In this document: positions 14,066-44,757 of the stretch, one piece after another
Numbering within the stretch: the stretch's first letter is position 1
Layout: the number at the start of each line of letters is the position of its first letter
DNA from: a virus
Length of the DNA: 64,000 nucleotides
Strand: one strand, 5' to 3'
IMG/VR virus record: IMGVR_UViG_3300028597_000007
Program-made: the position numbers and the translations under genes
Notes under the pieces: generated by a model
Databases searched by the model: none
What the model was told of the DNA's origin: nothing
What the model saw: the letters and a program-made list of their open reading frames with translations, nothing else

Positions 14066-14307
14066 TAGTGCTTCTCCAACTTTGCCTTGACCAACGTCAA
14101 GTGTTCACAACGAGCGGTCAACGCGTACCCGCCACCATCGTAACGGTGGTCGAAGGAAACAACGGATGGATAGCTGGTTGGGTATCCGCAGCAGTGGTCA
14201 ACATCAGTTGCCCCTTTCAGGTAATGTCTGGTGGCCTGCTTAAACCCGGCTTGGGTGCGGACCACGTAGACAGACCCGAAGATGTGTTCAAAGTTTGGAT
14301 GGCTCAT
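14065..14307 (-). CDS. small hypothetical protein
   Basis: RBS AAGGAGG before the start. Confidence 0.75.
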   Translation of the reverse strand: MSHPNFEHIFGSVYVVRTQAGFKQATRHYLKGATDVDHCCGYPTSYPSVVSFDHRYDGGGYALTARCEHLTLVKAKLEKH

Positions 14308-18332: not shown

Positions 18333-18414
18333 GATTTAAACTCGCAATGACCATTAGGTATTTATTAGCTAATACATGTTGATGAATGCCACATTTCCCC
18401 TAAGGAGCAATACC

Positions 18415-19467
18415 GTGACTCGTAAAGTAAACATTCTGGCTTGCGGCGGCTTTGGCCAAAACATGATGCTGGCTCTGTCCACTCGCCCCCTCTTCGAATC
18501 GATCAAGGACTCCCTGAACCTGGTCGCGTTCGACACCTCCGAGTCCAACCTCAAGCGCTTCGCTGGCTCCGCCATCGAGAAGCAGGTCAAGAAGGTGCTG
18601 GTCGAAAAGGCCGACGGCTCCGGCAAGCGTCGCGCTGAAAACCACGAAGCCATCACCGCCGTTGCCACCGACTTCGTCAACGACAACGGTGTCGAAAACG
18701 GCCTGGTCATCATCGTGTCCTCGGCCTCCGGTGGTTCGGGTTCGAAGTTCGCTGACGACCTGCACGAACTGCTGGCCAAGCGCGGCCATCGCGTGATCTC
18801 CATGATCCTGGGTACCGACGAGGACTCCGAGGCTCTGGGCAACACCGTCAAGACCATCAAAACCTACCGCCACAAGGCGAGCCTGTCCGACAAGAACTTC
18901 GCCATGTTCTACGGCCAGAACCGCTTCCCGGTCGAAGGCGAGGAAGGCAAGACCTACATCGACGAGGCGCGTGCCGACGAGCTGTTCGTGACCAACCTGG
19001 AAGACATCATCATGATCGGCCATCCAGGCAACGACACCCTGGACACCATGGACCAGCTGCGCTTCCTGAACTACCGCACCGACGCTGAAGGCGGCCTGAA
19101 GGGCCAGGGTCAGCTGCGCTTCCTGTCGCTGATTTCCCGTGGCGAGAAGGAAGACTTCCCGGACGATGAAGATGCCCCGGTATCGGCGCTGTCCCTGCTG
19201 TCCAAGCGTGGCGTTACCCCGCAGTTCCCAACCGGTACCGGCTACTCCACTCGTGGTTACCTGTCCGATGGTCTGACCTTCACCCACGACACCGTGGAAG
19301 TCCAGTACCAGCTGTTCTCCGGCCGTACCGGCAAGCTGGCCAACCAGCTGGCCAAGCAGCAGAAGCTGTACGACGATATCCAAGCCAAGCAGGCCCAGGC
19401 CAGCTCTGGCGACGAGATCAAGCGCAGCGAGCGTGATGAGCTGAGCGAATCTGGCAGCTTCCTGTAA
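18415..19467 (+). CDS. phuZ: PhuZ phage tubulin
   Basis: ACGGFGQN T1 loop, SASGGSGS tubulin signature, acidic-hydrophobic C-tail; GTG 18415 after AAGGAG; extreme codon bias. Confidence 0.95.
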   Translation: MTRKVNILACGGFGQNMMLALSTRPLFESIKDSLNLVAFDTSESNLKRFAGSAIEKQVKKVLVEKADGSGKRRAENHEAITAVATDFVNDNGVENGLVIIVSSASGGSGSKFADDLHELLAKRGHRVISMILGTDEDSEALGNTVKTIKTYRHKASLSDKNFAMFYGQNRFPVEGEEGKTYIDEARADELFVTNLEDIIMIGHPGNDTLDTMDQLRFLNYRTDAEGGLKGQGQLRFLSLISRGEKEDFPDDEDAPVSALSLLSKRGVTPQFPTGTGYSTRGYLSDGLTFTHDTVEVQYQLFSGRTGKLANQLAKQQKLYDDIQAKQAQASSGDEIKRSERDELSESGSFL

Positions 19468-19654: not shown

Positions 19655-19679
19655 GCCCTAATTTCGAAGGATGCCCCAA

Positions 19680-20048
19680 ATGTCCTATATTCTCAGCAGC
19701 AAAGCCAACACCATTTTCAACCTGCGTTCGCTCATTACCGCCCCCATGATCCAGTCCCAAGTGCTGGTCAGTGTCTACCCGGATGGCAGGGTCCAGGCAG
19801 TGCTGTCCTATCAGGGCATCGTGGTTGAGCAGCCGGACGAGCGCCAGGACACCGACGAAACCCTGTACGCTGACGACATCCGTCAGCAGTACGCACAATT
19901 CGATGTTATCCAGGACGGCCTGCTGGACGTCGGGGTGGGCAACACCCATCGCATTGCCATCACCGAACACTCCCTGGAAAACGAGATGTTCGCATTCATC
20001 CCCATGACCATCCAGCCAAGTACCCACTTCGACGCCGGTGAAGAGTGA
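19680..20048 (+). CDS. hypothetical protein
   Basis: RBS AAGGA; tiled with the next genes. Confidence 0.75.
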   Translation: MSYILSSKANTIFNLRSLITAPMIQSQVLVSVYPDGRVQAVLSYQGIVVEQPDERQDTDETLYADDIRQQYAQFDVIQDGLLDVGVGNTHRIAITEHSLENEMFAFIPMTIQPSTHFDAGEE

Positions 20049-20404
20049 TGGAGCCGCGCCTCGTCTATGGCCGTGACGAACACGGCAATGAGGTGACGCC
20101 ACTTGGCGTAGACTTCAAGCAGCAGTTCACGCTGGGTCAATTGGTTCTGGCCAGTCACGTACCTGAGACGATGATGTTCAAGGTGCGTGCCGATGGCAAA
20201 CCAGGCCACATGCTGCAGTACCAAGGCACTTGGCCTCTGCGCCGTCACAATGCCCAAGAGCCTGGCATCATCAACAACTACGCTCACTTCACCCCGTACA
20301 TTCGTAAGGGGCCTGGGGTGTGGGTACTGGACAACAACGGTCAGGTCTCGGTACCGCTCAGTAAAGAAGAGCTGCTGAGCCTTTACCAGTTCTATCAACT
20401 GTAA
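20045..20404 (+). CDS. hypothetical protein
   Basis: Coupled start. Confidence 0.75.
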   Translation: MMEPRLVYGRDEHGNEVTPLGVDFKQQFTLGQLVLASHVPETMMFKVRADGKPGHMLQYQGTWPLRRHNAQEPGIINNYAHFTPYIRKGPGVWVLDNNGQVSVPLSKEELLSLYQFYQL

Positions 20405-20413
20405 GGAGACGAT

Positions 20414-20836
20414 ATGTTCAAGTTCGATCCGAGTGGCATCGTCGGGGTCAATTCTCACTTCGGTGTAATCCTCACCCCGTGTGTGTTTGTCGAAAACGCC
20501 ATCAATGGTAAAGAGGGTTACGACGTTACTCCGATGACCCCTGGCACCAACACCTCAACGATGTGGATGACCAAGGACCAGGCAGTCGACTGCACTGCAG
20601 TGATCGAAGAGCCCAACCTCCGCTTGATCCCGCATGAAGAACGCGCCATTCATGCCGAGCTGGCTGTCCATCGGCAGCGCATCCGCGAATTGAACGCCGA
20701 GGTTGCGAACCGCCACCCGCACTACAAGGCCAACGGCACCACCGACGTCCATGCGGTCAGTTTCCTGAACCCACAGATCGAGCTGCTTGAAAAGCTGGTT
20801 ACTCTCCTCGAAGAGAAGCTCGCGCACATCGACTGA
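20414..20836 (+). CDS. hypothetical protein
   Basis: RBS AAGGAG. Confidence 0.8.
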   Translation: MFKFDPSGIVGVNSHFGVILTPCVFVENAINGKEGYDVTPMTPGTNTSTMWMTKDQAVDCTAVIEEPNLRLIPHEERAIHAELAVHRQRIRELNAEVANRHPHYKANGTTDVHAVSFLNPQIELLEKLVTLLEEKLAHID

Positions 20837-20943
20837 CTGCGTAATACTATGCAAACCTACGTTTGCTACGGACGCGGTTAGTAGTGCCCAGAGCCGAGCA
20901 GTCTTTCCGATAGCCGAATGGCTGGGTCAACCGCTAAGCCAAA

Positions 20944-20975
20944 GCCCTGCCCTTCGGGGCAGGGCACTTATGCCC
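20944..20975 (+). terminator. terminator hairpin followed by TTATGCC
   Basis: GCCCTGCCC-TTCG-GGGCAGGGC. Confidence 0.8.
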
Positions 20976-20987
20976 ATGGAGACCCCA

Positions 20988-21203
20988 ATGCCTGGAGTAT
21001 TTCGTTGCGTCAGCTGTAACCACGTCGACCTCATGGACGTTCGCTATCCCCACGGCGAAGACATGGATGTAGACCTGCGCCCCATTCCCCTCATCTGTAC
21101 CCAGTGTGCTGGGCTCCCCTGGCACAACCGAATGGTCTATGAAGTGTACAACCCAGAACTTCATGACGTGGTGAATAAACCTTCTTCAAATACAACGGGT
21201 TAA
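20988..21203 (+). CDS. small zinc-ribbon protein (CxxC...CxxC)
   Basis: RBS GGAGA; CVSC and CTQC motifs. Confidence 0.55.
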   Translation: MPGVFRCVSCNHVDLMDVRYPHGEDMDVDLRPIPLICTQCAGLPWHNRMVYEVYNPELHDVVNKPSSNTTG

Positions 21204-21333: not shown

Positions 21334-21372
21334 GCATACCCTCCGCCCTCGGAAGGGGCGGAGGGCTTATGC
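21334..21372 (+). terminator. terminator with GCATA/TATGC flanks
   Basis: CCCTCCGCCC stem pairing with GGGCGGAGGG. Confidence 0.8.
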
Positions 21373-21504: not shown

Positions 21505-21526
21505 AAACCTAAATTATCAAGATGAA
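21505..21526 (+). promoter_or_regulatory. phage promoter motif AAACCTAAATTATC-N4-TGAA
   Basis: Perfect consensus; the 14-mer is identical to that at 41521. Confidence 0.8.
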
Positions 21527-21546: not shown

Positions 21547-21888
21547 ATGAAGTTAACACCAATCCCCCAAGACCATACCACGTTCTTGTTCCACGTATCT
21601 GAGTATGAGCAGGACCTACTCCATGTCAACTGTGACATCGCCATGGAAGAGTATCTCGCTTGGCTCCTCGTGGATCTCGGGCTACCTGTCCTCACCCCAC
21701 CTTGGTGGACAGCGCCCGATCTTCCCTTTGAAGCACAGGTGACTCGTGATTTCCATATGAAGGAAATCTACAAGACGCTAACGGAAATGCTTTATGAAAA
21801 TGGATGGACAGGGGAAGAGGAACTGCTGGTGTGCGTCCAAGGTCGGGCTTATTGCTCGATCAGTTTTCTCAAGGAGCGTGCTGGATGA
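21547..21888 (+). CDS. small acidic protein, first gene of the tandem array
   Basis: First ORF after the promoter. Confidence 0.7.
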   Translation: MKLTPIPQDHTTFLFHVSEYEQDLLHVNCDIAMEEYLAWLLVDLGLPVLTPPWWTAPDLPFEAQVTRDFHMKEIYKTLTEMLYENGWTGEEELLVCVQGRAYCSISFLKERAG

Positions 21889-22460
21889 AATTCGTATTTG
21901 ACCTGGGCGAACAACTGGCTGAACTCCCTAAGCTGATACCTCAGGGTGGCTTCACCGAATCACTGGGTTTGAATCTGCTGGAGCCAAAGCACTGGCTTGA
22001 GTTTGTTCACACGGATGCCAAAGGTATTCTGCGTGAGAAGATTCTGGGCACCAACAACGACCGCGTACAAAACATGTTGGCCATTCTGCTCAAGGTGGCC
22101 AATGATGGCGGGGACGATGATCAGATCAAGTTCTTCGTCCGCGCAGTGCAAGAGTCCCACGAGCCACCGACCATTCCTGACCGTGGCGAAGATGGGGACA
22201 TCTATCCAAAGGACAGTCCAGAGCGCCGGTACCTGGAAGCGTTGGACGATCTGCTGGACGATATCTATTACGACATCGGCACGGAGCTTCATGAGTTCGT
22301 GTCTTCGTTCTACAACCGTGGTGATTTGTGGACGGTGGATGTCACACCGCACACCAAACACATGATCTTCAACTTCTGTTGCCAGCGCCATGTAGTTGAA
22401 GCCTCCGTTGTAGCTTCCGGGGGCAGCATGCATGACTTTGTGTACCACCTGATCGGATAA
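21885..22460 (+). CDS. small acidic array protein (FVFDLGEQLAEL)
   Basis: RBS AAGGAG; coupled start. Confidence 0.8.
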   Translation: MKFVFDLGEQLAELPKLIPQGGFTESLGLNLLEPKHWLEFVHTDAKGILREKILGTNNDRVQNMLAILLKVANDGGDDDQIKFFVRAVQESHEPPTIPDRGEDGDIYPKDSPERRYLEALDDLLDDIYYDIGTELHEFVSSFYNRGDLWTVDVTPHTKHMIFNFCCQRHVVEASVVASGGSMHDFVYHLIG

Positions 22461-22463
22461 CGC

Positions 22464-22952
22464 ATGAAGCAGTCATTCCATCCAGGGCCAATAGAGCCCA
22501 ACCCAGACTTCAAGATCGTCATCAATCTTGGAGAGATCATAGGTGCCTTCGACTATGACCTGGGAGACGATCGGTTTGCTACCATCGCTTCCCAGTTCAC
22601 TGGCGATACGTCGGGCTACTTGTGTCGCGGCATGATCCATTGCCTCCTGGGTATACCTGGAGGACTGTCGATCTCGGAAGCCGCTCGGTTCTTCCCCATT
22701 AACCTGCAACCATCTGCCACGATATTCCTGGAACACTTCTGGAATGCATTGGCAGCGGACATCGCCCGCATGGAAGGAATGATCAGGCAACAAAACCCTG
22801 GTCGTTCCTTCGACGCGAACCAAGTACCAACCCCAATGGTCAATGGTTACCACACCTTGACCATCTGGTACCACTGGTCTCTGGCCACACAACAACTGGA
22901 GGAACCTCTTGACTACGACGGGACTGACGAGCCCGAGGGTCGAGGGTTCTAG
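22464..22952 (+). CDS. array protein (IVINLGEIIGAF) ending in GRGF
   Basis: Tiled ORF. Confidence 0.8.
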   Translation: MKQSFHPGPIEPNPDFKIVINLGEIIGAFDYDLGDDRFATIASQFTGDTSGYLCRGMIHCLLGIPGGLSISEAARFFPINLQPSATIFLEHFWNALAADIARMEGMIRQQNPGRSFDANQVPTPMVNGYHTLTIWYHWSLATQQLEEPLDYDGTDEPEGRGF

Positions 22953-22960
22953 GAGATGCG

Positions 22961-23398
22961 ATGAAAGCAGTCGTACACTGGGACCTGTCTGAAATGATTG
23001 GGGAGGCGGACTTCGCGTTCAAGCAACACTCCCCTTTCGTGGATGGGCACGATGAAATAATCAGGGACACGCCGGTAGAGTGGAAACATCTGCTGGCTGA
23101 CCTTGCTGCGATTGCATTGCGTGACCAAGCAGCTGGCACAGACGCGCTGGCTGACTTTGTCGAGAGCAACATCGGTCGCAACTACGAGTTCTTGGGATTG
23201 TTCTTCAAGTCCCAGGCTCGACGCTGGTATAAAGAGATGACGTGGTTCACCGACTTCACTGCCCGTGATTTCGATTGGTACGTTATCGATGACGTTACAC
23301 AACTCACCCCCATGATGCTGAGAGTGGCTATCCATGGCGGGTACTATTATGAGAACCCTGACGCATGTTTGGACATTACCGAGTATCCATTGATCTAG
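22961..23398 (+). CDS. array protein (VHWDLSEMIGEA)
   Basis: RBS AGGAG. Confidence 0.8.
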   Translation: MKAVVHWDLSEMIGEADFAFKQHSPFVDGHDEIIRDTPVEWKHLLADLAAIALRDQAAGTDALADFVESNIGRNYEFLGLFFKSQARRWYKEMTWFTDFTARDFDWYVIDDVTQLTPMMLRVAIHGGYYYENPDACLDITEYPLI

Positions 23399-23940
23399 AA
23401 GAATCCATTGGAGAGATCGGCCTACTGCTGTCAGCGGTAACAGGCAACAAATTCAGCACCGAAATGACCACAATGGCATGCACACACTACAAGCACATGG
23501 CGCTTGTGTGTGCGTGTGCATTTATGATGTCGCCTGTTTCGCTGAGCTTGGCTGATCGTCACCGGGTGGTACAAGTACGCAACTCCATGGCTGAGAACAT
23601 TCAATCGGTTTATCCGATGTTCCAGCAAGAGGAATCCCGATGGGGCTATCAGGAGACCATGACCGTAGTGACTGAGTTGGCTTTCAACTTCGTCAACACG
23701 ATCCTGTTCTTCTATCCGCAACTTAAAGTAGCCCTGGGTCTGCCCCACTTGTATACATTCACACCTATCCAGATCGGAACACCTGAGAACTACTTGCCAG
23801 ATCCTCGGCAGATGGGTACCCCCCACGAGCAGAGAATGGCAGAGGCGTTCCCAGTGATCCGTGAAAGGAAGGACCCGGCCAACAGGTTGTCATTCACTCT
23901 TTGGGTGAGGCCTGGACCTAACCAAAGGCTACTGACCTAA
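23365..23940 (+). CDS. array protein (VSIDLEESIGEI)
   Basis: Overlaps its neighbours; TAATG coupling downstream. Confidence 0.75.
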   Translation: MFGHYRVSIDLEESIGEIGLLLSAVTGNKFSTEMTTMACTHYKHMALVCACAFMMSPVSLSLADRHRVVQVRNSMAENIQSVYPMFQQEESRWGYQETMTVVTELAFNFVNTILFFYPQLKVALGLPHLYTFTPIQIGTPENYLPDPRQMGTPHEQRMAEAFPVIRERKDPANRLSFTLWVRPGPNQRLLT

Positions 23941-24383
23941 TGAACCCGTATTGGAAGACCATCATGATCCTGCGATTATCCAGAGAAGATCATTTCTTCG
24001 ATCTGGGATTGGAGATTGGCAACATCGATGGTTACTGCACGGCGATCCTTGAACTTGTCTTAGAGGCAATTGCAATGGAACGCTTCAACACGCAGTACAT
24101 CCATACAGGTGCTCGTAGCGACTACTCGGTGCCGTGGAAGATTCAATTCCCCGGCACTGGTGCAGTTGAGTACCTGCAAAACTACGAACGCATCCTGTCA
24201 CGTTTTGTGTACATGACAGGCGGTAAGTTTGACACCGAGCGAATCATTGATGACCTGATGACGGTCTATGAATGGGTCGCCGATCCGATTGATCAAGAGT
24301 TCCCCGACTGGTCGATGCAGGCACCGGCCAAGATTGAGTTCACGCTGACTCCGGGGAGCTTTCAATTTGAGATAAGCAAATGA
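23940..24383 (+). CDS. array protein
   Basis: Coupled start. Confidence 0.75.
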   Translation: MNPYWKTIMILRLSREDHFFDLGLEIGNIDGYCTAILELVLEAIAMERFNTQYIHTGARSDYSVPWKIQFPGTGAVEYLQNYERILSRFVYMTGGKFDTERIIDDLMTVYEWVADPIDQEFPDWSMQAPAKIEFTLTPGSFQFEISK

Positions 24384-24808
24384 TGCGTAAAAAGAGAGTA
24401 TTGGTCATCGACCTCACTGAGGAGGTTAATGACTACGTGGGAGATTTGCCTGAGGAGTCTTGGGGACTGGACTCCGAGACTTCCGAATACGGAGGACCCG
24501 ACGAGCTGGCAATCAGTGCAGCCTGTGGGTTCTTTGGTTACATCGATCCCAACTCGCCTAATCATGACGAGGAAGAGGAATTCGAGGACATGGACAAGGC
24601 CATCGGGCATAGCTGCACGCTAGAGCCCAATGATCAATTTTGGTTTGATGTGCACCATAATCTGAATCTGTTCAAGCCGCAGCTGCTCGCGAATGGATTG
24701 TTCTACGCGACAGACATAAGCTTCAGTAACAAGCGACTGGTCATTGAAGTGTCCAACGAAATGGATATGGCGAAACATCATGATAGAATCCAACCCCCCA
24801 GAAGCTGA
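24380..24808 (+). CDS. acidic array protein (LVIDLTEEVNDY)
   Basis: Coupled start. Confidence 0.8.
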   Translation: MMRKKRVLVIDLTEEVNDYVGDLPEESWGLDSETSEYGGPDELAISAACGFFGYIDPNSPNHDEEEEFEDMDKAIGHSCTLEPNDQFWFDVHHNLNLFKPQLLANGLFYATDISFSNKRLVIEVSNEMDMAKHHDRIQPPRS

Positions 24809-25256
24809 TGAGCAATCAGCCAGAGACCCGAACAAGAAGGCATGGCAACACGAGTGCCCCCTTGAAATCGAGGTTGACCAGACCGCAGCTGTTGTAATTG
24901 TCGAGTCAGAGGTGCTGGCCGGCATCTATGACATGCTGCGTCGTAAGCGTTTTCGAATGGGTGTTCCTATGGACGCCCCGCAAAGCGCATGGCTACACAA
25001 GGTCTCCCAGGCGGTGGGTATCTGCCTCAATGACTACCACATGGAGCGTTTCTACGACGCTAACTGTTTGGCCATTGGCACCTTGCTCATGAATGAGTTG
25101 ATGGACGACCTCCGTGAAAGCATGACTTGGGTAGCCAACGTGTACTGGGAGGACGTTATCGGCTTCTCCGTAATCAGTGGCACCACAAAGGTGATGCTAC
25201 ACTTCTCTCAAGAGGATCTTGACAATGGCGGTATCATTGCGCAGCTTGGCGCCTAA
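24780..25256 (+). CDS. array protein
   Basis: Tiled ORF; start uncertain (24744 or 24780). Confidence 0.7.
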   Translation: MIESNPPEADEQSARDPNKKAWQHECPLEIEVDQTAAVVIVESEVLAGIYDMLRRKRFRMGVPMDAPQSAWLHKVSQAVGICLNDYHMERFYDANCLAIGTLLMNELMDDLRESMTWVANVYWEDVIGFSVISGTTKVMLHFSQEDLDNGGIIAQLGA

Positions 25257-25638
25257 TACCAAGATCAACCTCGTTGCCAGAATGCAAATCCAAGGACGTA
25301 CCACGTTCACGGGCTACACATTCCAGGGCGAGGTTCCAATGGCGGTTGCCGGCATGTTTGCCGGTGACCTGCGCGCTTTGGTGGCCCAGACCAAGGCGTA
25401 CTTCCGCAGTGGTTCTTCGGCCGACGAGAACAAGATCAACTACATCTTGCTCAAGCAGTCGGAGTCCACCCCGGTGTTCGTAATCCCTGAGCCACTGATC
25501 GAGTTGACCTCGGTGCAAGTGGCCGGGTCTACCGTGTACGACGTGGTGGTTCGTGATGGCATTACCGAGCAGGAGTTGCAGAACATCCTGTCCGGTAACG
25601 GTCTCAAGGACTTCTCTGTCACCGCACGACAGGTGTAG
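25225..25638 (+). CDS. conserved chimallivirus small beta-rich protein (SH3-like)
   Basis: RBS GAGGA; residue pattern resembles a gene found just upstream of the CYTH gene in phiKZ-like phages (recall). Confidence 0.65.
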   Translation: MAVSLRSLAPNTKINLVARMQIQGRTTFTGYTFQGEVPMAVAGMFAGDLRALVAQTKAYFRSGSSADENKINYILLKQSESTPVFVIPEPLIELTSVQVAGSTVYDVVVRDGITEQELQNILSGNGLKDFSVTARQV

Positions 25639-25640
25639 CC

Positions 25641-25997
25641 ATGTCCACCTACTCCGGCGTAGACGGGCTACTGCGGATAGCCCCCGGCCAACCTTTGGAT
25701 CTCACTCCGTGCCTGGAAGAGATTCACAAGGTTGGTCGGGACTACCGGGTCTTCTTTAAGGTTGGCTCTATCGAACTGGAGGATGATACCTACAGCGTCG
25801 AACAGTCGACCCAACACGTGATGTCCAGCGTGGGTGGAACCAGTGAGTCGTTTAGCTTTGAAGTAGACGACGAAGCGACACCTACGATCCGCAGCGTAGA
25901 TTTTGCGCTGGGTACCAAGAACGACCTCTACCTCTCGGCATGTGATGCGAGGGTGAGGTCGATCATCTTGGAAGATATGTACATCCTCGCCCCCTAA
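25641..25997 (+). CDS. hypothetical acidic protein
   Basis: RBS AGGTG. Confidence 0.7.
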   Translation: MSTYSGVDGLLRIAPGQPLDLTPCLEEIHKVGRDYRVFFKVGSIELEDDTYSVEQSTQHVMSSVGGTSESFSFEVDDEATPTIRSVDFALGTKNDLYLSACDARVRSIILEDMYILAP

Positions 25998-26025
25998 TTT
26001 TTTTGTCTCAAAACAGGTGCCCAGC

Positions 26026-26649
26026 ATGGCTCGCGACGTAAAACTCAATCAGCGAATGCTCATGATGCTCGAATCGTTGGACAACGAGGACGCATCCGGC
26101 AAAGCTACCCAAGAAGTCGAACACGTTTTCTACGGCAAGATCGCCGACGCCAACCAGTTGGCTGAACTGGCCAAGCAGCCGTACGTGACCAAGTTCTTGC
26201 AGGAGCAATCCCAGTGCAAGATCCTGATCAAGTCTGCTGCTGACAACCCGCCGACCCTGCGCGTGCGCCGCATCAACCGCGAGTCCTGCGTGATCACCCG
26301 TAAGGTGTTCGTGCCTGGCCAAGCTGGCATGATGGAAGACACCAAGGAATGCGGTGAAGCGCTGTACGACTTCCTCTCCCAGACCTTCGGCGAAGCGATG
26401 ACCAAAATGCGCTACGTCATCCAGCCAGAAGGTCAGAAGAAGTTGGAACTCGACGTGTTCCTCGACCGTCACGGTAATGCCTTGGGCTACGCCAAGTTCG
26501 ACTTCGAAGTGGAAAGCGCCGATGAGGCCTGTCCGCAACTGCCGCTCACCCTGACCGACCTGAAACACGTTGACCCGTACAAAGGTTCCGACGTAGATCG
26601 CGCCGCCCTGCGCGAGTTCATGCAGATGATGACTTACAAGACCATGTAA
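26026..26649 (+). CDS. CYTH-like (triphosphate tunnel) phosphatase, phiKZ gp49-like
   Basis: E-x-E start motif, LRVRR, KxRY, ELDVF and DFEV motifs; adjacent to the DNA polymerase. Confidence 0.8.
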   Translation: MARDVKLNQRMLMMLESLDNEDASGKATQEVEHVFYGKIADANQLAELAKQPYVTKFLQEQSQCKILIKSAADNPPTLRVRRINRESCVITRKVFVPGQAGMMEDTKECGEALYDFLSQTFGEAMTKMRYVIQPEGQKKLELDVFLDRHGNALGYAKFDFEVESADEACPQLPLTLTDLKHVDPYKGSDVDRAALREFMQMMTYKTM

Positions 26650-26653
26650 GTTG

Positions 26654-26683
26654 GTGGCCAGCCTTCGGGCTGGTCGCTATGCC
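26654..26683 (+). terminator. terminator hairpin followed by TATGCC
   Basis: GCCAGCC-TTCG-GGCTGGT. Confidence 0.7.
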
Positions 26684-26739
26684 GTCGTTTAGAATGAGCT
26701 GGGGACATTAAGTAGTCCCGCACACATAAGACATTTCCC

Positions 26740-27165
26740 ATGGACACACATTTCATTGGTAAAGTGGCGCTCGATGAGGTAATCGCTGACTTCCGTGATT
26801 ACCTGATTACCGAACGCGGCTTCAAAGAGTTGGCAGATGCTCTCCCCAACGAGTATCTGGCCCAAGAGTTTGAGTACATTGCAAAGGGTACAGTGAACCG
26901 TCACTACCTCAACATGCACGAACACCTGGAGCGCACCCGCGAGATCTTTACGTCGTTCAGTGATGAGACCGCCGCAGAAGCAGAAGACCTCGCCGACGAG
27001 ATGTACATCCTTCTACGCGATGAGTTTGGTCCAGGGTTCAGCAAAACCAAGGCAGTATACACGGTCAGTCGCGTCAACGACAATCTGTGCATTAATCTGT
27101 TAGCCTCTGGCGAAGCAGTCCACTACGGGATTGATCTTAAATCCCTTGCAGAACAGGTCTCCTGA
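26740..27165 (+). CDS. small acidic protein, possible array member (KVALDEVIADF)
   Basis: TGATG coupling to the polymerase. Confidence 0.75.
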   Translation: MDTHFIGKVALDEVIADFRDYLITERGFKELADALPNEYLAQEFEYIAKGTVNRHYLNMHEHLERTREIFTSFSDETAAEAEDLADEMYILLRDEFGPGFSKTKAVYTVSRVNDNLCINLLASGEAVHYGIDLKSLAEQVS

Positions 27166-29510
27166 TGGAACACTTCCTGCTGTCACCCGAGCAGTACCAG
27201 CGGGACCTGAACGTGGTCCGCACCTACATGCACGACAATGCCTTCTTCCTGACGAAGATGCGTGGCCGTGACTACGAGTACAACGTTGAGTGGATTCGCA
27301 AGACCATTGGTCGTGATGGTAAGTTCCCCATCAAGAACCCGCTCGTCACCATCATCGACAAGGATAAGAATGGTGACCGCTTCATCCGTAAGGTAGGTTA
27401 TCTCAACTACCTCAAGAACATCGTTGCCAAAGACCTCATCTGCGCCCCTTCCATGACCACCTATGTGCGTCCAGAAGTGCGCAAGTCCATGATGGGGGTT
27501 TACATCAACGGCAACATGGACCTGCGTAACGGTGCTAAGGCTGAGGCTCTCGAAGCTAAGCTGATGGCTTCCTCGTATGGTGGTAAGGTAGCCGAGCTGC
27601 TGGAGCAACCCCAAACTCCAGCTCGTGACGCAGCCCTGGCCGACTACGAACTCAAACAGGCCCAAGAGAAGAACAAGGCCGGTATTAAGAACAACGAACA
27701 GACCTCGCACAAGATCTTCAACAACGGGATCTCGGGCATGCAGACCATCGGGTCTACTCCGTTCGTTCTGGTATCCGCCCACTCCTCCCTGACATCTGGC
27801 TGTCGCTCCGCCGTGTCATACGGCAACGCCGCCATTGAACGTTTCGTTGCAGGTAGCCGTCACTACTGGTCGCCTGAAGTTGTGATTGCGCAGATACTTT
27901 CTATTTGCCGCAATACCAACTACGACAAACTGAAGAAGGTCATCGAGAAGTACAACCTGTACATCCCGACCCAGGAAGACATCATCGCCGCCATTCGTTA
28001 CTCGACCAGCCTGTATTGGTCACACGAGGAATCGATGGAAGAGATCGGTGAACTGGTTCAGACCCTGGACGGGTACGAGCGCGCTGCGTTCCTTTACACG
28101 GGTGACATGTATCACCTGCGTAAGTACAACGATGCGTTCATGAATGGTTTCCTGACCGAACTGGAAACAGTCGGCGGCGCCGATCACCCTGATCCAATCG
28201 CCGGTATCAAGAAGGTTAAAGGTGACCACAAGGCACTGGCTCTGATTCTGTGCTCTGAGGTAACTGCCGGTAAGTCGATCAAGGATATGATCGATAAGCA
28301 GGACCTGCAAGCGCTGGGCATGGTCTGCAATACCCATGCCAACATCATGGCTACCTTGGATAAGTACCATGACCTGATTGAGATCCTTTGGACTTCGCTC
28401 AACGTTCCGCCAAACATCAGCCGTACTCGTGACATTCGTCGCCGTTCGGTTGTAGGTTCCGACACTGACTCCTGTCTGTTCACTGTGCGCGAGTGGGTCA
28501 AGTGGAAGAACGGCGAAGCCTCGTTCAACAAACCATGCCAGGCTACTTGGCACTCGGTTGTGTTCTTGGCTTGCCAGGTTGTAACCCACACCCTCGCCTG
28601 TCTGTCTGCTGGCATGGGCGTGCGTGGTGAAGACGTCCTTAAGCTGGCAATGAAGAACGAATACGCCTTCTCGGCATTCGGCCTTACCAACATCGCCAAG
28701 CACTACGTTGCATCGATGATCGCTCAAGAAGGTGGCGTTTATACCAAAGCCGACTTGGAGATCAAAGGCGTTCAGTACAAGGACTCCAACTCCCCGCCAG
28801 AAATCATCGAAGAGGACAACGCGTATATCGAATCCGTCATGGATCAGATCTACGCAACTGGTCACTTTGAGATGATGCCAATCTTGAAGTCTATGGCGCA
28901 GACTGAAAAGAATGTGACTGAGTCCATCAAGAAGGGTGACACCAAGTACCTGAAGTCGGCTTACGTGCGTCCTAAGGAAGACTACAAAAAGCCAATGTCG
29001 TCAAACTACTTCCACTACCTTCTGTGGGAGAAAGCGTTCTCGCACAAGTACGGGGCCACGCCATCACTCCCGTACCGTGCTGTGAAAATCTCTGTTGATC
29101 TGCCGAACAAGACCGCCATCAAGAAGTGGGTCGACGGCATTGAAGACGACACCATGAGAAACGCTTTGTATGAGCTGTATGTGTACGGAGATGGTGGTGG
29201 TGCCGATGATGATGAGTTGGCGCCGGGTGAGATCAGTGCCAAGGAAGCGGACAGCGAGGAAACCACCGAGCAGCCCGAGGAAGCACCAAAGAGCAAAGAT
29301 GCTCCGATGAAGCCCAAGGTCAAGATCACATCGTTCCTGATGCCTCTGGACCTCGTGCAGTTGAACGGTATCCCAGAAGAGATTCTTCGGGTAGCAGACG
29401 TACGTCGTCAGACTTACTCGACGGTATCGCCCTTCTACCTGTGTGCTGAAACTCTGGGTTTGCCAATGATCAACGCCAACCTCACCACCCTCTTGTCAGA
29501 CATGCTCTAA
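27165..29510 (+). CDS. family-B DNA polymerase, catalytic half (phiKZ gp50-like)
   Basis: KIFNNGISG (motif B), SDTDS (motif C), KHY; synteny. Confidence 0.9.
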   Translation: MEHFLLSPEQYQRDLNVVRTYMHDNAFFLTKMRGRDYEYNVEWIRKTIGRDGKFPIKNPLVTIIDKDKNGDRFIRKVGYLNYLKNIVAKDLICAPSMTTYVRPEVRKSMMGVYINGNMDLRNGAKAEALEAKLMASSYGGKVAELLEQPQTPARDAALADYELKQAQEKNKAGIKNNEQTSHKIFNNGISGMQTIGSTPFVLVSAHSSLTSGCRSAVSYGNAAIERFVAGSRHYWSPEVVIAQILSICRNTNYDKLKKVIEKYNLYIPTQEDIIAAIRYSTSLYWSHEESMEEIGELVQTLDGYERAAFLYTGDMYHLRKYNDAFMNGFLTELETVGGADHPDPIAGIKKVKGDHKALALILCSEVTAGKSIKDMIDKQDLQALGMVCNTHANIMATLDKYHDLIEILWTSLNVPPNISRTRDIRRRSVVGSDTDSCLFTVREWVKWKNGEASFNKPCQATWHSVVFLACQVVTHTLACLSAGMGVRGEDVLKLAMKNEYAFSAFGLTNIAKHYVASMIAQEGGVYTKADLEIKGVQYKDSNSPPEIIEEDNAYIESVMDQIYATGHFEMMPILKSMAQTEKNVTESIKKGDTKYLKSAYVRPKEDYKKPMSSNYFHYLLWEKAFSHKYGATPSLPYRAVKISVDLPNKTAIKKWVDGIEDDTMRNALYELYVYGDGGGADDDELAPGEISAKEADSEETTEQPEEAPKSKDAPMKPKVKITSFLMPLDLVQLNGIPEEILRVADVRRQTYSTVSPFYLCAETLGLPMINANLTTLLSDML

Positions 29511-31542: not shown

Positions 31543-33540
31543 ATGTCCGTTGAAAAGAAGCAAAGCGCATCGGGTGGTAACATCATGGCAGAAGCCTTTA
31601 AAAGGGCCGGCCTTGACACCCAAGCGCAAGTGGAGCCTGCGACGTCTGCAGCGAAGCCCGCTGTGGATATCCAGGAACCTGCAGTACGACAACAGCCAGC
31701 CCAGCAACGCGAAGCTATTGTCGATCAATCTATTAACGTTAATAAGGACAGCATCACCATGAGCAACACTGATCAATACACCCAAGGTCGCCGCGACGCA
31801 AAATCGTTCAACACCCTGAACGACCTGGGCGCTCGTCGCCTGCGTCCTCTGTCGCGCTCTGCCGGCTCCGTCCGTGCCAAAGAGCTGCAGACTGCAATCG
31901 AGAAAGAACTGAAGGCCGGTCTGAAGGCTGACGGTGTTTCCGAATGGGCCGTGCAGATCATGGACGCCGCCCAGCTGAACCTGCCGACTTCGTCGGTTGT
32001 TCTGCTGATGACCGTCAAGACCTCCGACGCCGAGCACGTCGGCATGTACTCGTTCCTGATCGACGGCGCAGACATCCGTCTGACTCCGAAGGTCGACAAG
32101 GTCGATGGCCGTGCCTACGAGACCCCGATCGTCATCGGCGACATCTACAACAGCCAGGACTACATCACCCGCGCCACCGAGCTGGTCACTCAGACCCGCC
32201 AGGGCCGTGCGATCAACCTGATCGACGCCGGTGCCGTGATCCTGCCTGCCGCCTACAACATCGAAACCAACGGCGTGTACAACCTGCTGTACAAGGCCAC
32301 CCTGGCACTGTACAACACCCTGAACTACGTCGTTCAGCTCGATGACCAACCAGCCTACACCCTGGCCGGTCGTAACCAAGGCGGCGAGCAACTGGTCGGC
32401 CGTCTGAACTTCGGCGGCGAGCGTTACGTCGACGAAGTCGGCATGCCGCAGCGTCACGACGTTATCGTCGAGATGGATTCGGTCCGCAACCAGCAGAACC
32501 GCGACTTCGCCGGCGCCTCCAGCAACATCACCAAGGTTGCCGGTTACATGGAGCCGGTGTACGCGCAGCCTGACCCGCAGAACCCTGCCAACAACCAGCC
32601 GTTCTTCAACCAGATGGTGATCACCCAGATCGCCTCCGGCTTCGACGCGCAGGAAGTTGAAATGTCCCTGCTGGGCCTGGTCACTGCGACCATGGTGCAG
32701 ATCCGCAATGGCTGGGCTGACGCCTACCTGCCGCGCTTCGCCAACCAGGGCAAGGAGCTGAACTTCCGTGACGTCGGCGCCCTGGGCTTCTGCGTACCGG
32801 AAAATGCTCGTATCGACACCAAGGCTGCCAGCTTCAAGGAAAACTTCGGCAACTTCATGCGCGATTTCTTCCGCCTGAACGCCGGTGTGATCTTCGCGAT
32901 CGATATCCCAGAAGTCGGTCCTGACGCCTTCATCATGGACATCTTCCGCGCTGCTGCCTCGGGCAACGGCAACGCCATCAAGGCGCTGACCGATGCGTGC
33001 AACAACCTGACCGGTGGTATCTACGGCCAGAAAGCTGCAGCCATCGGTGGTGGCTTCCCGCTGTTCATCGATACCGGCAACCGCATCCACAACGGTTACT
33101 ACGCTTCCGAAACCGGCGAGCTGCGTGACATTCGTGATGTGGACCTGCTGGCCGTCGCCAACGTCCTGGGCAAGACCAACCCACAGGCGCTCATCGACTA
33201 CGCTGATTCGTTCGCTGCCGGCACCGCCCAAGCGCCGATCCGTATGTCCAAGCGTTTGGCCATCATCGACGACGTGCTGCAAGGTCGTCAGGTGATCACT
33301 GGCTACTCCGGCCGCTACATCATCGGCCCTGTGTTCCTGCGCGTCCTGTCGGAAGCCTGCCAAGCCTGCGGCCTGGTTGTCAACCCAGCGAACATGGTTC
33401 ACGGTCTGGGTTCGGGTCAGGTCCTGGGTGGCTACGACTACGGCGCATTCGCAGCTGGTGCTGCTGGTGCTGGCGTGTTCAACGGCGGTGGCAACACCGC
33501 GGCCAACACCGCTGCTTACGGCGGTCGTTCGGTCTGGTAA
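31543..33540 (+). CDS. chmA: chimallin, major phage nuclear shell protein (phiKZ gp54-like)
   Basis: Sits between the gp52-like gene and nvRNAP beta-prime N; 665 aa; extreme codon bias; Gly/Ala-rich C-tail; RBS AAGGAG. Confidence 0.9.
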   Translation: MSVEKKQSASGGNIMAEAFKRAGLDTQAQVEPATSAAKPAVDIQEPAVRQQPAQQREAIVDQSINVNKDSITMSNTDQYTQGRRDAKSFNTLNDLGARRLRPLSRSAGSVRAKELQTAIEKELKAGLKADGVSEWAVQIMDAAQLNLPTSSVVLLMTVKTSDAEHVGMYSFLIDGADIRLTPKVDKVDGRAYETPIVIGDIYNSQDYITRATELVTQTRQGRAINLIDAGAVILPAAYNIETNGVYNLLYKATLALYNTLNYVVQLDDQPAYTLAGRNQGGEQLVGRLNFGGERYVDEVGMPQRHDVIVEMDSVRNQQNRDFAGASSNITKVAGYMEPVYAQPDPQNPANNQPFFNQMVITQIASGFDAQEVEMSLLGLVTATMVQIRNGWADAYLPRFANQGKELNFRDVGALGFCVPENARIDTKAASFKENFGNFMRDFFRLNAGVIFAIDIPEVGPDAFIMDIFRAAASGNGNAIKALTDACNNLTGGIYGQKAAAIGGGFPLFIDTGNRIHNGYYASETGELRDIRDVDLLAVANVLGKTNPQALIDYADSFAAGTAQAPIRMSKRLAIIDDVLQGRQVITGYSGRYIIGPVFLRVLSEACQACGLVVNPANMVHGLGSGQVLGGYDYGAFAAGAAGAGVFNGGGNTAANTAAYGGRSVW

Positions 33541-36551: not shown

Positions 36552-37193
36552 ATGAACCAGGTGATCTATGGAGACGAGGGCGCAATCAACGAGCTGGTGT
36601 ATGGCTCGCGAAGTGACGCCTTGATTACTGAGCTGAAGCAACAGATCAGTATTCAGAACCCAATGCTCACCGAACAAGGTCGACTGCATGCTCAGCACGC
36701 CCACCGGGTATTTGAAGAGGTATCCGGTTGGGATGTTGTCCGCGCTGCTCGTCGAGCAGTTGCAGCAGCAGAAGGCTATGTCCAGAGTAGTCAGATCGCA
36801 CTCTATGAGACGGTTGAGCAATTCCAGATGGCCCCTCCACGCCAACAGCGTTGGATCATGGCTCATCCAGAAACTCGCCGCCTGTTCCAAGACGGGCGCA
36901 TTGACGGCTACTCCGAATCTTACGTCGACATCCAGCCCGACGCCATTGGTCGTGATCATTACGATTACAGCCTGGCTATCCATGGCGTCACTCGTGGTTA
37001 CGAGTTCGTCAAGGAAGATGGTGAGGTTGAACTGATGTATGAGAATACTCAGATCAAGCGTGATCTTGCCAGCTGGGATGAACCCCTGTCGCAGCGTAAC
37101 ATTCTGGACATCGCCAGACTGCACCAAGTCCAAGACGGCTTCTGCAAAGAAGGCGCTGAAGACTTCACCAGTCGATTCGGTGGCACCATCTGA
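36552..37193 (+). CDS. conserved chimallivirus protein (phiKZ gp59-like, nuclear-import-associated Imp3)
   Basis: WIMAHP...IDGYSESY..DY pattern and synteny (recall). Confidence 0.65.
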   Translation: MNQVIYGDEGAINELVYGSRSDALITELKQQISIQNPMLTEQGRLHAQHAHRVFEEVSGWDVVRAARRAVAAAEGYVQSSQIALYETVEQFQMAPPRQQRWIMAHPETRRLFQDGRIDGYSESYVDIQPDAIGRDHYDYSLAIHGVTRGYEFVKEDGEVELMYENTQIKRDLASWDEPLSQRNILDIARLHQVQDGFCKEGAEDFTSRFGGTI

Positions 37194-41592: not shown

Positions 41593-43116
41593 ATGGAGAT
41601 CCAAATTGAAGGTTACTCTCCAACAGGCGCCTTCAAGCGAGTGGCTACCGTGCATAACGGTGAGTCCATTTCGTGGAACACGCAGACTTATTCCAAGCTG
41701 AAGTTCCACAATGCGGCTGTGATCTTTTCGGAGATCAATGCGCTCTGGGCTACGCTACCCATGGCAGCTCAGGACAAGATCTTCGCGGCGTACAAAGAGG
41801 TCCATCAACACCTCACTGAACCTGAGGATAATAAGCAGCAGGTCGAAAGGCTCATGGTGCTTATCGTTGAGATCTACAAGCACTACACGGCCAAAGATGC
41901 CGAGGATATCGTCAATGGGTTGAACCTGACATATCCAAGCTCGATGGCTGAGACCTACGGCGACAGTGGCGACAACGGGCGTACCCATACCCGTGCCGAC
42001 TACCATCGCCTGGTCCAACTGGCAATCCGGCTGCGCCCCATGTTGCCGGTGTTCGGCCAGTACATTCATACGTTCCTCGACCAACCGGGCTCGCAATACC
42101 GTGAGACCAGTGCGGTCAAGATCCTGAACGATACGGACGTACTGACCATGCCAGCGGTGGAGAAGTTGGTAAGTTTCATGGAGGCAACTCTGAAGAACTT
42201 CCAGCATCAGAACTCCGCCATTCTGGGAGGGAAGCTGGGTACTGCAGAAATGCCTTACTGGCTGGTCGCCAAGGCAATCTTCCGCAGGATCGCACCCGGC
42301 GAAGTACACAGCGTGGACGATGTATCTTCCATCATCACCAACGTGTACAACTTTGTGGTGAAGTCGACCCTCGACTCCATCCCCAGGAACTTTGGTGGCA
42401 CCAAAAACAAAACCCGCACCACAGAAGGTTCGAACAAAGACGAGAACGTTTCCTTGCTGGAAGCGATTCGAATCCGTGAGCAAATCTCTGGCGGGCGTAA
42501 GAAAGTGGTTGACGTGTATTCGCGTAACATCCTGTTCACAGCGCGTCGGGTAGATCCGACCGTGCCTGAGGCCATGGTGGAAGAATGCACCCGACCAGAC
42601 ATCACCAGACTGAACCGTGACGTGCATGAAGTGCAGTCGATCATGGCGCGTTGGGTAATGTCGCGAGGCCAGCCACCGTCGCACTATGACCTGCTCAAGC
42701 GCGAGCCGGTGTTCCGCTTCCTCGGGGCTGCTCAAGCCCTGCTCTGGCACTGGGGCTACCTGGAGCTGGCTGCATTGATGGATGCGGTTCCCCTGCAAGA
42801 CCTGACCATGGCTCCCTCGGCCACGCTGTGGGCACGAGAAGAGCTTAGCAAGGATCGTCTGGAACTGCTACGTGAGCGGTATCCACACGTGTCGCAACTG
42901 ACCCGCGGTAGCCAGAATCCCGATGAGGCTATCAAGGGTGTCGTGGAGAACGCAGAGCTTGCTCGCATGATCCACAGTGAAGAATGGGTCCTGGCAAAAG
43001 ACTCTCGGTTCTACGATCTCGTGAACCACAATGAGCAAGGACATCTGATCCTGTCCCCAGGCTTTAGAAACACCATCGCAGACCTGCAGCTTCAAGTATC
43101 TGCTGGTACGTGGTAA
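41593..43116 (+). CDS. non-virion RNAP fifth, sigma-like subunit (phiKZ gp68-like)
   Basis: 507 aa; TYxRADY..L..LAIRLRPMLPVFG pattern; synteny. Confidence 0.75.
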   Translation: MEIQIEGYSPTGAFKRVATVHNGESISWNTQTYSKLKFHNAAVIFSEINALWATLPMAAQDKIFAAYKEVHQHLTEPEDNKQQVERLMVLIVEIYKHYTAKDAEDIVNGLNLTYPSSMAETYGDSGDNGRTHTRADYHRLVQLAIRLRPMLPVFGQYIHTFLDQPGSQYRETSAVKILNDTDVLTMPAVEKLVSFMEATLKNFQHQNSAILGGKLGTAEMPYWLVAKAIFRRIAPGEVHSVDDVSSIITNVYNFVVKSTLDSIPRNFGGTKNKTRTTEGSNKDENVSLLEAIRIREQISGGRKKVVDVYSRNILFTARRVDPTVPEAMVEECTRPDITRLNRDVHEVQSIMARWVMSRGQPPSHYDLLKREPVFRFLGAAQALLWHWGYLELAALMDAVPLQDLTMAPSATLWAREELSKDRLELLRERYPHVSQLTRGSQNPDEAIKGVVENAELARMIHSEEWVLAKDSRFYDLVNHNEQGHLILSPGFRNTIADLQLQVSAGTW

Positions 43117-43143: not shown

Positions 43144-44757
43144 ATGAAAACTGGCGTAAAGATTCTGAACATCCTGTTGGCCGAAGCAGTTCCATCGGTA
43201 CAGTTGTTCCACCGTCCGTGGGAAGTGAACTATCGCCCAGAGTACCTGGATGGGCTGATGGAGTCCACCAATGACGGTACCAACCTGTCGCCGGGCGCGA
43301 TCAAGCGCGTGGCTAACCAGATGCTGGTTCCTTCTGCCGCTCATACCGGGGCCGTGCAAATCGCAAACGGCTTCGATACCCAGCGCTTCACCGTGACCTT
43401 CGTCGTTGAAACTGAAAACGTCGGCGGCCGCAAGACTCAGGAGATCCTCTCCGGCTACACCGACCACATGGGCATTGGTGGTACCGATACCAACCCGATC
43501 TACAACCCAGAGATGCGCTTCTTCTTCAACCACATGGGCACGCTGCAAATCACCCAAGGTTCCGGTGCTCTGGGTTACGGCATGTTCACCTTCGGCAACG
43601 CCACCGAGATCCTGACGCCGATGATTGGCTGGGATAACCAGGAGCACGTGCCAGTGGTCAACCGCCAAGCTACCGCCATGCGTCCTCGCGACGTTCTGGC
43701 CAGCATGGGCGAAGGCGCATTCTCCGGCATGGGTATGACCACCGGCCAAAGTCAGCTGAACGGCGCCCCTGTTCTGGCCAACACTGGTTATCAATTCGGT
43801 GCCCGTGCCAAGCGTTCCAGCTTCGACAACACCGACTCGGCCGAATACCTGAGCCGCGTGTTCACTAGCGTGCGCGATGTGAGCCTGTCCAATGAGAGCG
43901 ATGCCCGTACCTACGGCACCTCCCTGCAGCAGGCTGGTGAGAACAACTACACCGCTGAGCCGCTGACCTCCAACTCGGCCATGATGCTGCTCCTACAGCG
44001 CCGTAGCCAGTACCAGTCCGAGTGGTCCGTAACCCTGGGTGAGCTGTGCCAGATTGACCCAACCATCGCTCAGCGTATCCAACCGATCCGCATGAAGCGC
44101 GACTATGTTCACACCATGGCCGCTATGATGGGTAACACCGACGGCTGGGGCGAAACCAGCAATGAGTCCCAAGTGGCTCAGCTGGCTACCATGATCATGC
44201 CGAATGCCATGGCGAAGTTTGCTCTGGGTATGCTGCACTTCATCGCACACACCGACACCCTCGATGGCTCTGTCGACCTGCGCATCATGAACGCAGCTGG
44301 TGTGGCTCAAGGTATCGATCCTAAGCCGATCATCAACATGATCCGTCACCACCTGATCTACGAAGTATATCCGACTCTCACCAAGCAAGGTGCGATTAAG
44401 CTGTACATCGAAGCGAACATCTCGCTGAACCGGATCTCGAACGTGATCGTGTCGGTCAACGGCGGTGAGAAGAAGCCGTTCCCAATCGCGACCTACTGCT
44501 CGGCCCTGTATTCGCCAAACCTTGCACCGAACGTGCAGCGTCTGGAGTCTCTGGCATCCGACCTCAGTGTCGTATCGGCGCAGCTCACTGCGGCGGCAAT
44601 CAACCATGGTCCAGGCATCATCCGTCCAGATGGTGGCCAGTTCCACAATATGAACTACGGTGGGAGCAGCATTGCCGCTACTCCGATCGCTGATCTCAAC
44701 GTTAATCTGTCGGGCCAGGGCGGCGTCCCAGGCACTGGCAATGGTCGTGGCTTCTAA
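43144..44757 (+). CDS. picA: PicA/Imp1 phage-nucleus protein import factor (phiKZ gp69-like)
   Basis: Between the gp68-like and gp70-like genes; IANGFDTQRF, SGYTDHMG and FFFN motifs (recall). Confidence 0.75.
   Translation: MKTGVKILNILLAEAVPSVQLFHRPWEVNYRPEYLDGLMESTNDGTNLSPGAIKRVANQMLVPSAAHTGAVQIANGFDTQRFTVTFVVETENVGGRKTQEILSGYTDHMGIGGTDTNPIYNPEMRFFFNHMGTLQITQGSGALGYGMFTFGNATEILTPMIGWDNQEHVPVVNRQATAMRPRDVLASMGEGAFSGMGMTTGQSQLNGAPVLANTGYQFGARAKRSSFDNTDSAEYLSRVFTSVRDVSLSNESDARTYGTSLQQAGENNYTAEPLTSNSAMMLLLQRRSQYQSEWSVTLGELCQIDPTIAQRIQPIRMKRDYVHTMAAMMGNTDGWGETSNESQVAQLATMIMPNAMAKFALGMLHFIAHTDTLDGSVDLRIMNAAGVAQGIDPKPIINMIRHHLIYEVYPTLTKQGAIKLYIEANISLNRISNVIVSVNGGEKKPFPIATYCSALYSPNLAPNVQRLESLASDLSVVSAQLTAAAINHGPGIIRPDGGQFHNMNYGGSSIAATPIADLNVNLSGQGGVPGTGNGRGF

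Follow-up and report, generated by a model that had tools for sequence, protein, structure and literature searches.

Diverged small acidic proteins between phuZ and the DNA polymerase gene of a soil chimallivirus: a likely paralogue family, with nuclear import as a possible analogy

The closest described systems are two small proteins of phage phiKZ: orf47 encodes Imp2, which is needed for the import of Nlp1 and is itself imported via Imp1, while orf48 encodes Imp4, which together with Imp5 is required for the import of TopA (bioRxiv 10.1101/2024.03.27.586873). Both imp2 and imp4 lie between the phiKZ genes for PhuZ (gp39) and gp49/DNA polymerase (gp50). The present analysis concerns the same interval in IMG/VR virus record IMGVR_UViG_3300028597_000007, within a stretch of 64,000 nucleotides (the window, to which positions refer unless a contig is named), where positions 21547–27165, between phuZ and the DNA polymerase gene, carry an array of small and mostly acidic proteins. 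A first-pass annotation of this DNA had stated that phiKZ gp47 and gp48 in this interval are cargo-specific import factors, with which the literature and the phiKZ gene order agree, and had proposed that the array is one fold expanded into a repertoire of adaptors. Our analysis indicates that seven of the proteins, designated g2–g7 and g12, are likely to be one diverged paralogue family, with g1 and g8 as possible and g10 as a doubtful member.

In the open reading frame (ORF) listing the block contains twelve plus-strand genes, g1–g12, which overlap or are separated by gaps of a few bases, the single larger gap being one of 90 bp 5′ of g12. They are given below with protein length in amino acids (aa) and, where it was noted, isoelectric point (pI); the C-terminal elements of g1, g6 and g8 and the strand-rich character of g10 are as read from the sequence.

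21547–21888, plus strand: g1, 113 aa, pI 4.5; possible family member, variant motif FLFHVSE, C-terminal strand pair
21885–22460, plus strand: g2, 191 aa; family member, motif FVFDLGEQL at residue 3
22464–22952, plus strand: g3, 162 aa; family member, motif IVINLGEII, conserved acidic C-terminal tail ending GF
22961–23398, plus strand: g4, 145 aa; family member, motif VHWDLSEMI
23365–23940, plus strand: g5, 191 aa, pI 6.6; family member, motif VSIDLEESI
23940–24383, plus strand: g6, 147 aa; probable member, variant motif FFDLGLEIG, C-terminal hairpin
24380–24808, plus strand: g7, 142 aa; family member, motif LVIDLTEEV, conserved C-terminal tail ending QPPRS
24780–25256, plus strand: g8, 158 aa; possible member, acidic N-terminal extension followed by VVIVESEVL, C-terminal hairpin
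25282–25638, plus strand: g9, 118 aa; SH3DP domain, not a family member
25641–25997, plus strand: g10, 118 aa; acidic and strand-rich, membership doubtful
26017–26649, plus strand: g11, 207–210 aa; CYTH/triphosphate-tunnel fold, not a family member
26740–27165, plus strand: g12, 141 aa; family member, orthologues carrying IINLEEMI and ILNLEELV

The pI is 4.3–4.8 in 10 of the 12 proteins, and a pI below 5 occurs in approximately 15% of the crude gene set from the record; the acidity described in the first pass therefore stands, while its count of about nine genes has become twelve. Syntenic orthologues of every gene occur in contigs of related phages (IMG/VR L001 and L003; Logan/ENA L065/L066, L067/L068, L075 and L076), the exception being g10, for which no orthologue was found in L003 and which is present in L001 and L065. 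One-to-one retention was counted across seven related contigs, representing six related metagenomic phages, whose polymerases are 66–77% identical (77% in L001, 71% in L003). Gene order and number are nearly invariant across this clade, and the sole gene gain seen in the block is a gene of 209 aa between g11 and g12, not in the window, at 14209–14838 of L065 and 7245–7874 of L066, which has no Pfam match. Since the orthologues are syntenic, independent gene calls on L065 returned identical gene lengths, and the ratio of nonsynonymous to synonymous substitution rates (dN/dS) against L065 was 0.05–0.23 for the block genes (0.06 for the polymerase), the block genes are real and constrained. The g12 stop codon overlaps the start codon of the DNA polymerase gene (27162–27167), as it also does in L001 and L003, which suggests that g12 is translationally coupled to the polymerase.

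The feature that first links the members is an N-terminal motif, h-x-h-[DN]-[LM]-x-E-x-h (h, hydrophobic), located within residues 3–30 of g2, g3, g4, g5 and g7. Run as a regular expression over the crude gene set of the 140-kb record it matched four times, each time in the array (g2–g5, residues 5–30), with g7 left out of the scanned gene set and its LVIDLTEEV fitting the expression by eye; shuffled sequences gave 0.19 hits in the first 45 residues. The strand-[DN]-L-x-E motif of the first-pass annotation was thus borne out, all six of the strings quoted there having been found. Across orthologues a longer signature of approximately 12 positions, h-h-h-[DN]-L-x-E-x-[ILV]-[GAN]-x-h, can be recognised, and the motif is among the best-conserved segments of each protein and is kept in the orthologues of all seven families (g2–g7 and g12). 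In g12 the form in the window is weak, and the two orthologue strings listed above are those of L003 and L002, respectively. When a hidden Markov model (HMM) of the motif was built with one family left out at a time and run on 660 six-frame ORFs of the record, the omitted g3, g4, g5 and g7 ranked first and g2 third, and neither g6 nor g12 was retrieved. Because a DNA repeat search found no repeat behind it, the motif is, on these comparisons, an old feature at protein level. In g3 the motif core occurs twice in tandem at residues 21–35 (22527–22568), as NLGE and then, eleven residues on, as DLGD, both copies being conserved in orthologues. The phiKZ prohead-protease cleavage motif, which we take to be S/A/G-x-E, was considered as an identity for the N-terminal motif and ruled out, as P3 here is L or M.

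Sequence comparison within the block is at the limit of detection. All-against-all blastp and jackhmmer searches among the block proteins gave no cross-family hit, and hhalign with 3–6 sequences per family gave at most 36% (g2–g4). With deeper profiles, g3–g12 reached 34.5% (E 4e-4, 115 columns), g5–g7 33.9% (131 columns) and g3–g5 28.7%, these three pairs having E values of 4–6e-4, followed by g3–g7 at 15% and g2–g12 at 12.5%; the additional orthologues had raised both g3–g12 and g5–g7 from 9% to these values. Apart from the separate u1–u3 set described below, the top pairs are all between members, collinear, begin at the motif and run over nearly the full length. As a calibrator, the proven homologues g9 and the phiKZ gp49 family reach only 44.8% at such profile depth. 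With the motif region cut off, member–member scores were still higher than member–control scores (Mann–Whitney p 0.008), a difference to which common composition could contribute. No significant profile link was obtained for g1, and those of g8 are weak (1.8% to g12).

AlphaFold models were made for two read-through fusions of in-frame neighbours, g2+g3 and g11+g12, each with its orthologue alignment. The g11+g12 model had an overall pLDDT (predicted local distance difference test) of 79.7, with g12 at 85–97, and the g2+g3 model one of 57, with the g3 core at 70–86. In its own numbering, g12 is predicted to consist of a strand (5–10), a helix (11–25), four further helices (29–34, 37–51, 59–71 and 75–96, with the long helix placed at 81–96), a hairpin (106–112/115–122) and two terminal helices (124–129 and 133–140), while g3 has a strand (16–21), a helix (22–27), further helices (36–44, 47–62, 70–74 and 79–110, the last being the long one) and C-terminal strands (116–118 and 131–138). 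A constant shift of 11 residues lays nearly every element of g3 on its counterpart in g12, in the same register as the hhalign alignment. The g2 model, at low confidence, repeats this order, carries an acidic insert of approximately 40 residues and closes with a C-terminal hairpin followed by two helices. The order common to the three is strand, short helix, helices, long helix and hairpin, and DSSP assigns the N-terminal segment of g3 and g12 as strand and places all remaining strands at the C-terminus. The C-terminal beta-hairpin that had been proposed from the letters is accordingly present in the predicted structures of g2, g3 and g12; for the other members it is a reading of the sequence.

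An alternative, to which we give little credence, is that the proteins are not paralogues but unrelated ORFans that each acquired a similar N-terminal strand and a helix with a capping box, whether because many proteins arrive at this structure or because it is a portable element for docking or targeting. Several results weigh on that side and against a common family. No profile pair is individually significant, the best standing at 34.5%, and a merged g3+g12+g5+g7 super-profile recruited none of g2, g4, g6, g1 or g8. Part of the motif is simply a helix capping box of the generic kind, and such boxes ([ST/DN]-x-x-E) are common; the strand-rich-looking g10 has a motif-like N-terminus in L001, which fits a portable motif over a shared fold. 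The g2 model is also poor (pLDDT 35–70), and the structural comparison covers the order of elements in three folded members. Unrelated origins are, however, hard to reconcile with a motif that spans approximately 12 positions and occurs only in adjacent array genes within the scanned set, with similarity that persists when the motif is masked, with three models of the same element order, in which the elements of g3 coincide with those of g12 after a constant shift, and with near-full-length hhalign alignments that became stronger as profiles deepened. For both checks that bear on the single-fold proposal the outcome is mixed: the all-against-all profile comparison gave collinear member–member pairs below individual significance, and the models of g2, g3 and g12 agree in element order with g2 at low confidence. 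Taken together, the motif, the element order and the collinear weak profile hits make one expanded fold likely for g2–g7 and g12.

The proposal does not extend to the whole array, since g9 and g11 have known and different folds. The g9 protein is an SH3DP (PF20287, 30.2 bits against a Pfam gathering cut-off of 25) homologous to phiKZ gp49 (hmmsearch E 6e-26), and an SH3DP gene stands beside the polymerase in 50 chimallivirus loci. The g11 protein fits the CYTH fold, which is recognised by an eight-stranded tunnel with inward charged motifs (an initial ExE, RxR and ExD/ExE): it matches BFVD CYTH proteins of Ralstonia and Klebsiella chimalliviruses (E down to 2e-14), its part of the fused model has a pLDDT of approximately 80–93, and its alignment conserves the charged motifs of the tunnel. 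It is conserved in several chimallivirus lineages, being inverted just downstream of the polymerase in L004 and L009, and might act on the 5′ triphosphate of an RNA, on polyphosphate or on a nucleotide. Pfam and PHROGs searches of all block proteins gave nothing beyond g9 and g11.

The remaining family is likely a previously undescribed small acidic alpha/beta domain that is detectable in this small clade only. A word-index search with g3 returned three close relatives only, and the g3 profile, run against 1.84 billion representatives, returned three in-clade orthologues and two spurious repeat proteins. For g3 and g12, the ESM Atlas gave no usable neighbour and the PDB sequence search nothing below E 0.27. 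The domain would consist of an N-terminal strand, a helix that opens with the capping box ([DN]-L-x-E), a helix bundle, a long helix and the C-terminal hairpin, and because the sole other strands in the g3 and g12 models are C-terminal, the N-terminal strand probably pairs with the hairpin and so closes the domain.

The virus from which the window derives is a divergent chimallivirus (a "nucleus-forming" giant phage), uncultured and from soil, near-identical DNA having been found in public runs from soil metagenomes only, with no RNA run among those listed. Its record is 140.7 kb long and approximately 51% complete by CheckV; megablast found no match to the region among 50,697 phage records, and no phage in the GenBank collection has a DNA polymerase with more than approximately 34% identity to its own. 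The landmark genes of the window are as follows.

18376–19467: PhuZ tubulin gene
27165–29510, plus strand: family B DNA polymerase gene (phiKZ gp50 homologue), which closes the block
31543–33540: chimallin gene (PF25677, E 2e-40)
approximately 36696–37184: Imp3 homologue (E 6e-20)
41593–43116: homologue of gp68, a subunit of the non-virion RNA polymerase (nvRNAP)
43144–44757: Imp1/PicA homologue (22% identity to phiKZ gp69 over approximately 490 residues, E 2e-18)

Two putative transcription signals precede the block.

21340–21366, plus strand: G+C-rich hairpin CCCTCCGCCC-loop-GGGCGGAGGG, 3′ of the upstream zinc-ribbon gene and lacking a T tract
21505–21518, plus strand: promoter-like AT-rich motif AAACCTAAATTATC, 29 nt 5′ of the g1 start codon

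The hairpin, which a simple terminator scan does not pick up, is likely a transcript end or processing site. The AT-rich motif, counted with up to three mismatches, has 10 sites in the window, where 1.8 would be expected, and every one is on the plus strand (4825, 8832, 9153, 12431, 15456, 21505, 29524, 31466, 41521 and 46551); one lies 64 nt 5′ of the chimallin gene, and others precede the gp68/PicA-homologue genes and a small operon that follows the polymerase. The genes for PicA and chimallin are expressed early (PMC12908238), and in jumbo phages that encode RNA polymerases a conserved AT-rich motif can be recognised only for promoters of the early class, which the virion enzyme serves (PMC7598289). 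By analogy with that class, and because the motif is shared with the chimallin and gp68/PicA genes, AAACCTAAATTATC is probably the early promoter consensus of this phage. A scan of the coding strand found no terminator-like site that stands out inside the block, and we infer that g1–g12 are co-transcribed with early timing; the single early-promoter unit suggested in the first pass is probably correct, the tight same-strand packing fitting it and the promoter-like motif and hairpin lying upstream.

On balance, we consider it probable, if less firmly so than the kinship itself, that the block is an early operon, set in a lineage-variable phuZ–polymerase interval, of at least seven ancient paralogues that act as non-enzymatic binding modules with separate partners. 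Block members of the family are without catalytic signatures. As the relatives all keep a single orthologue of each paralogue, under purifying selection, the copies would have separate jobs. The strand–helix–hairpin core would serve as the scaffold, and the divergent helical faces together with family-specific tails, such as the acidic tail of g3, would recognise different partners early in infection. That tail finishes in ...LGF or ...RGF across the g3 family (for example EEPELLGF, in 22900–22952) and resembles the aromatic-ended acidic docking tails of single-stranded DNA-binding protein (SSB) and T7 gp2.5.

The partners might instead belong to the host, the paralogues being early take-over or anti-defence inhibitors diversified on one acidic scaffold. 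Small acidic early proteins without known domains are the usual profile of phage proteins that act on the host, and the array members are small, acidic, likely early and devoid of known domains. We nevertheless hold this explanation to be improbable, because gene content is near-fixed among relatives whose polymerases have diverged as far as stated above, dN/dS is low, counter-defence islands usually show gene turnover, and the block lies amid genes of replication (SH3DP and polymerase). The stable one-to-one orthology favours a role in the phage's own programme over an arms race, so that for the binding modules a phage process at the nucleus, either import or replication, would be a more likely partner than a fast-changing host defence. 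Import or replication is suggested by the neighbours (SH3DP, CYTH and a polymerase with an overlapped start codon) and by the phiKZ precedent.

A narrower possibility, which we regard as rather unlikely, is that the paralogues are cargo-specific adaptors for import into the phage nucleus, acting with the Imp1/PicA homologue as analogues or very distant relatives of Imp2 and Imp4. The phiKZ proteins resemble the array in their place between phuZ and the SH3DP/polymerase genes, in their size (127–178 aa), in their confinement to one lineage and in the lack of known domains, and Imp2, Imp4, Imp5 and Imp7 are all small, lineage-restricted proteins without known homologues. The phage also encodes Imp1/PicA and Imp3 homologues, and the array has its promoter motif in common with chimallin and the gp68/PicA genes. 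Judged by eye, the family alignments of Imp2, Imp4 and a gp38-like protein start with a strand followed by a helix and end in a hairpin, which for Imp2 and Imp4 gives a layout of N-terminal strand, helices and C-terminal hairpin similar to that of the array. Unlike the array members, which are likely paralogues, they are not known as mutual paralogues, and their function is known from genetics.

Comparisons by phmmer, tblastn-type search and hhalign give this analogy no support, none having detected homology to Imp2 or Imp4. The loci compared for the phiKZ group (L064, L071–L074 and L077) were those of phiKZ, Psa21, PA1C, 201phi2-1, PhiPA3 and Noxifer. Imp2 (gp47) found no match in the record at E up to 10, nor was there one for Imp4 (gp48), and phiKZ gp40–gp48 have no relatives in the record or in 60 metagenomic chimallivirus loci. 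In the reverse direction, hmmsearch of the array profiles against the phiKZ proteins returned gp49 only. By hhalign the array reached 0.9% or less to the Imp2 family and at best 3.7% to the Imp4 family, the latter from the non-member g9; against 10 phiKZ-group families it gave the g9–gp49 link only, and against 26 families drawn from this interval in 57 other chimalliviruses at most 6%. Position is likewise weak evidence, because in most chimalliviruses the phuZ–polymerase interval generally holds 8–15 lineage-specific, unrelated small genes.

A structural hint in favour of import adaptors is that the poor g2+g3 model finds its best BFVD matches among proteins of the phiKZ group (E 1.8e-3 and 0.12, with template modelling (TM) scores of approximately 0.2–0.36). 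They fit Psa21 gp039, of the gp43 family, and Noxifer gp041, which falls in the Imp2 family (hmmsearch E 2e-9); the matches are weak, come from a low-confidence model, and their accessions were tied to these genes by length only. The phiKZ gp43 family (Psa21 gp039, PhiPA3 gp039 and 201phi2-1 gp75) consists of uncharacterised proteins of 305–365 aa from the same interval, whose N-termini run from basic residues through a strand and an acidic residue into a helix. The 305-aa Psa21 protein is the top match of the fused model, subject to the same assignment by length, and PhiPA3 gp039 ranks 48th; the family differs in being twice the size of the array proteins and in having no profile similarity to them, and the match itself is weak (E 1.8e-3, TM 0.2). 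Just 5′ of the gp43 homologue lies a further gene family (Psa21 gp038, 201phi2-1 gp74, PhiPA3 gp038 and Noxifer gp035) with starts such as VLCWDISHIMG or LHAFDIGLVLSEL and a hairpin end, which recalls the array motif. Between this gp038-type family and the array, hhalign gave no support (1.3%).

Between phuZ and the array lie a separate set of tandem paralogues, u1–u3, and one further gene.

19671–20048: u1, of the tandem paralogue set
20045–20404: u2, of the same set
20414–20836: u3, of the same set
20787–21203: u4, directly before the array, with a conserved part of approximately 70 aa and a weak zinc-ribbon signature

The u2 and u3 proteins are clear paralogues (hhalign 97%, E 8e-11, with a u3 profile into which jackhmmer had already brought a u2 orthologue at E below 1e-6), and u1–u2 is weaker at 14–20%. 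As an example of the tandem paralogue families of jumbo phages, u1–u3 resemble the array in being adjacent, co-oriented and diverged copies of a small protein in the early region; they differ in that u2 and u3 are still recognisable by sequence, whereas the g family stands at the detection limit and yet has a fixed order and number in the clade. Homologues of u4 occur upstream of the polymerase in approximately 30 chimallivirus loci. In the relative L066, the gene at 544–990 encodes a crAss001_48-related C-terminal domain (PF21825, E 7e-11).

The array thus likely represents a genuine paralogue family of a divergent chimallivirus, not described before, for which a role in import would be an analogy drawn from gene position. 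Import into the phage nucleus is known to need lineage-specific small factors, of which, to our knowledge, those of phiKZ are the only ones identified. Seven to nine fixed paralogues on one scaffold, under a promoter of what is probably the chimallin class, would be a natural place to seek import factors in a distant chimallivirus, and if they do act in import, gene duplication would be suggested as a route to new cargo specificities. A far-reaching version, which we consider very improbable, is that the array, Imp2, Imp4 and perhaps the gp43-like and gp38-like proteins represent one ancient strand–helices–hairpin adaptor domain that is Chimalliviridae-wide and diversifies by lineage to license cargo via PicA/Imp1. 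Were it true, this domain of common ancestry would be a viral counterpart of the importin-adaptor repertoire, with the conserved N-terminal strand–helix edge as a common docking surface. Should the paralogues turn out to be replisome or host-directed binders instead, they would still constitute a new fold family with separately conserved surfaces.

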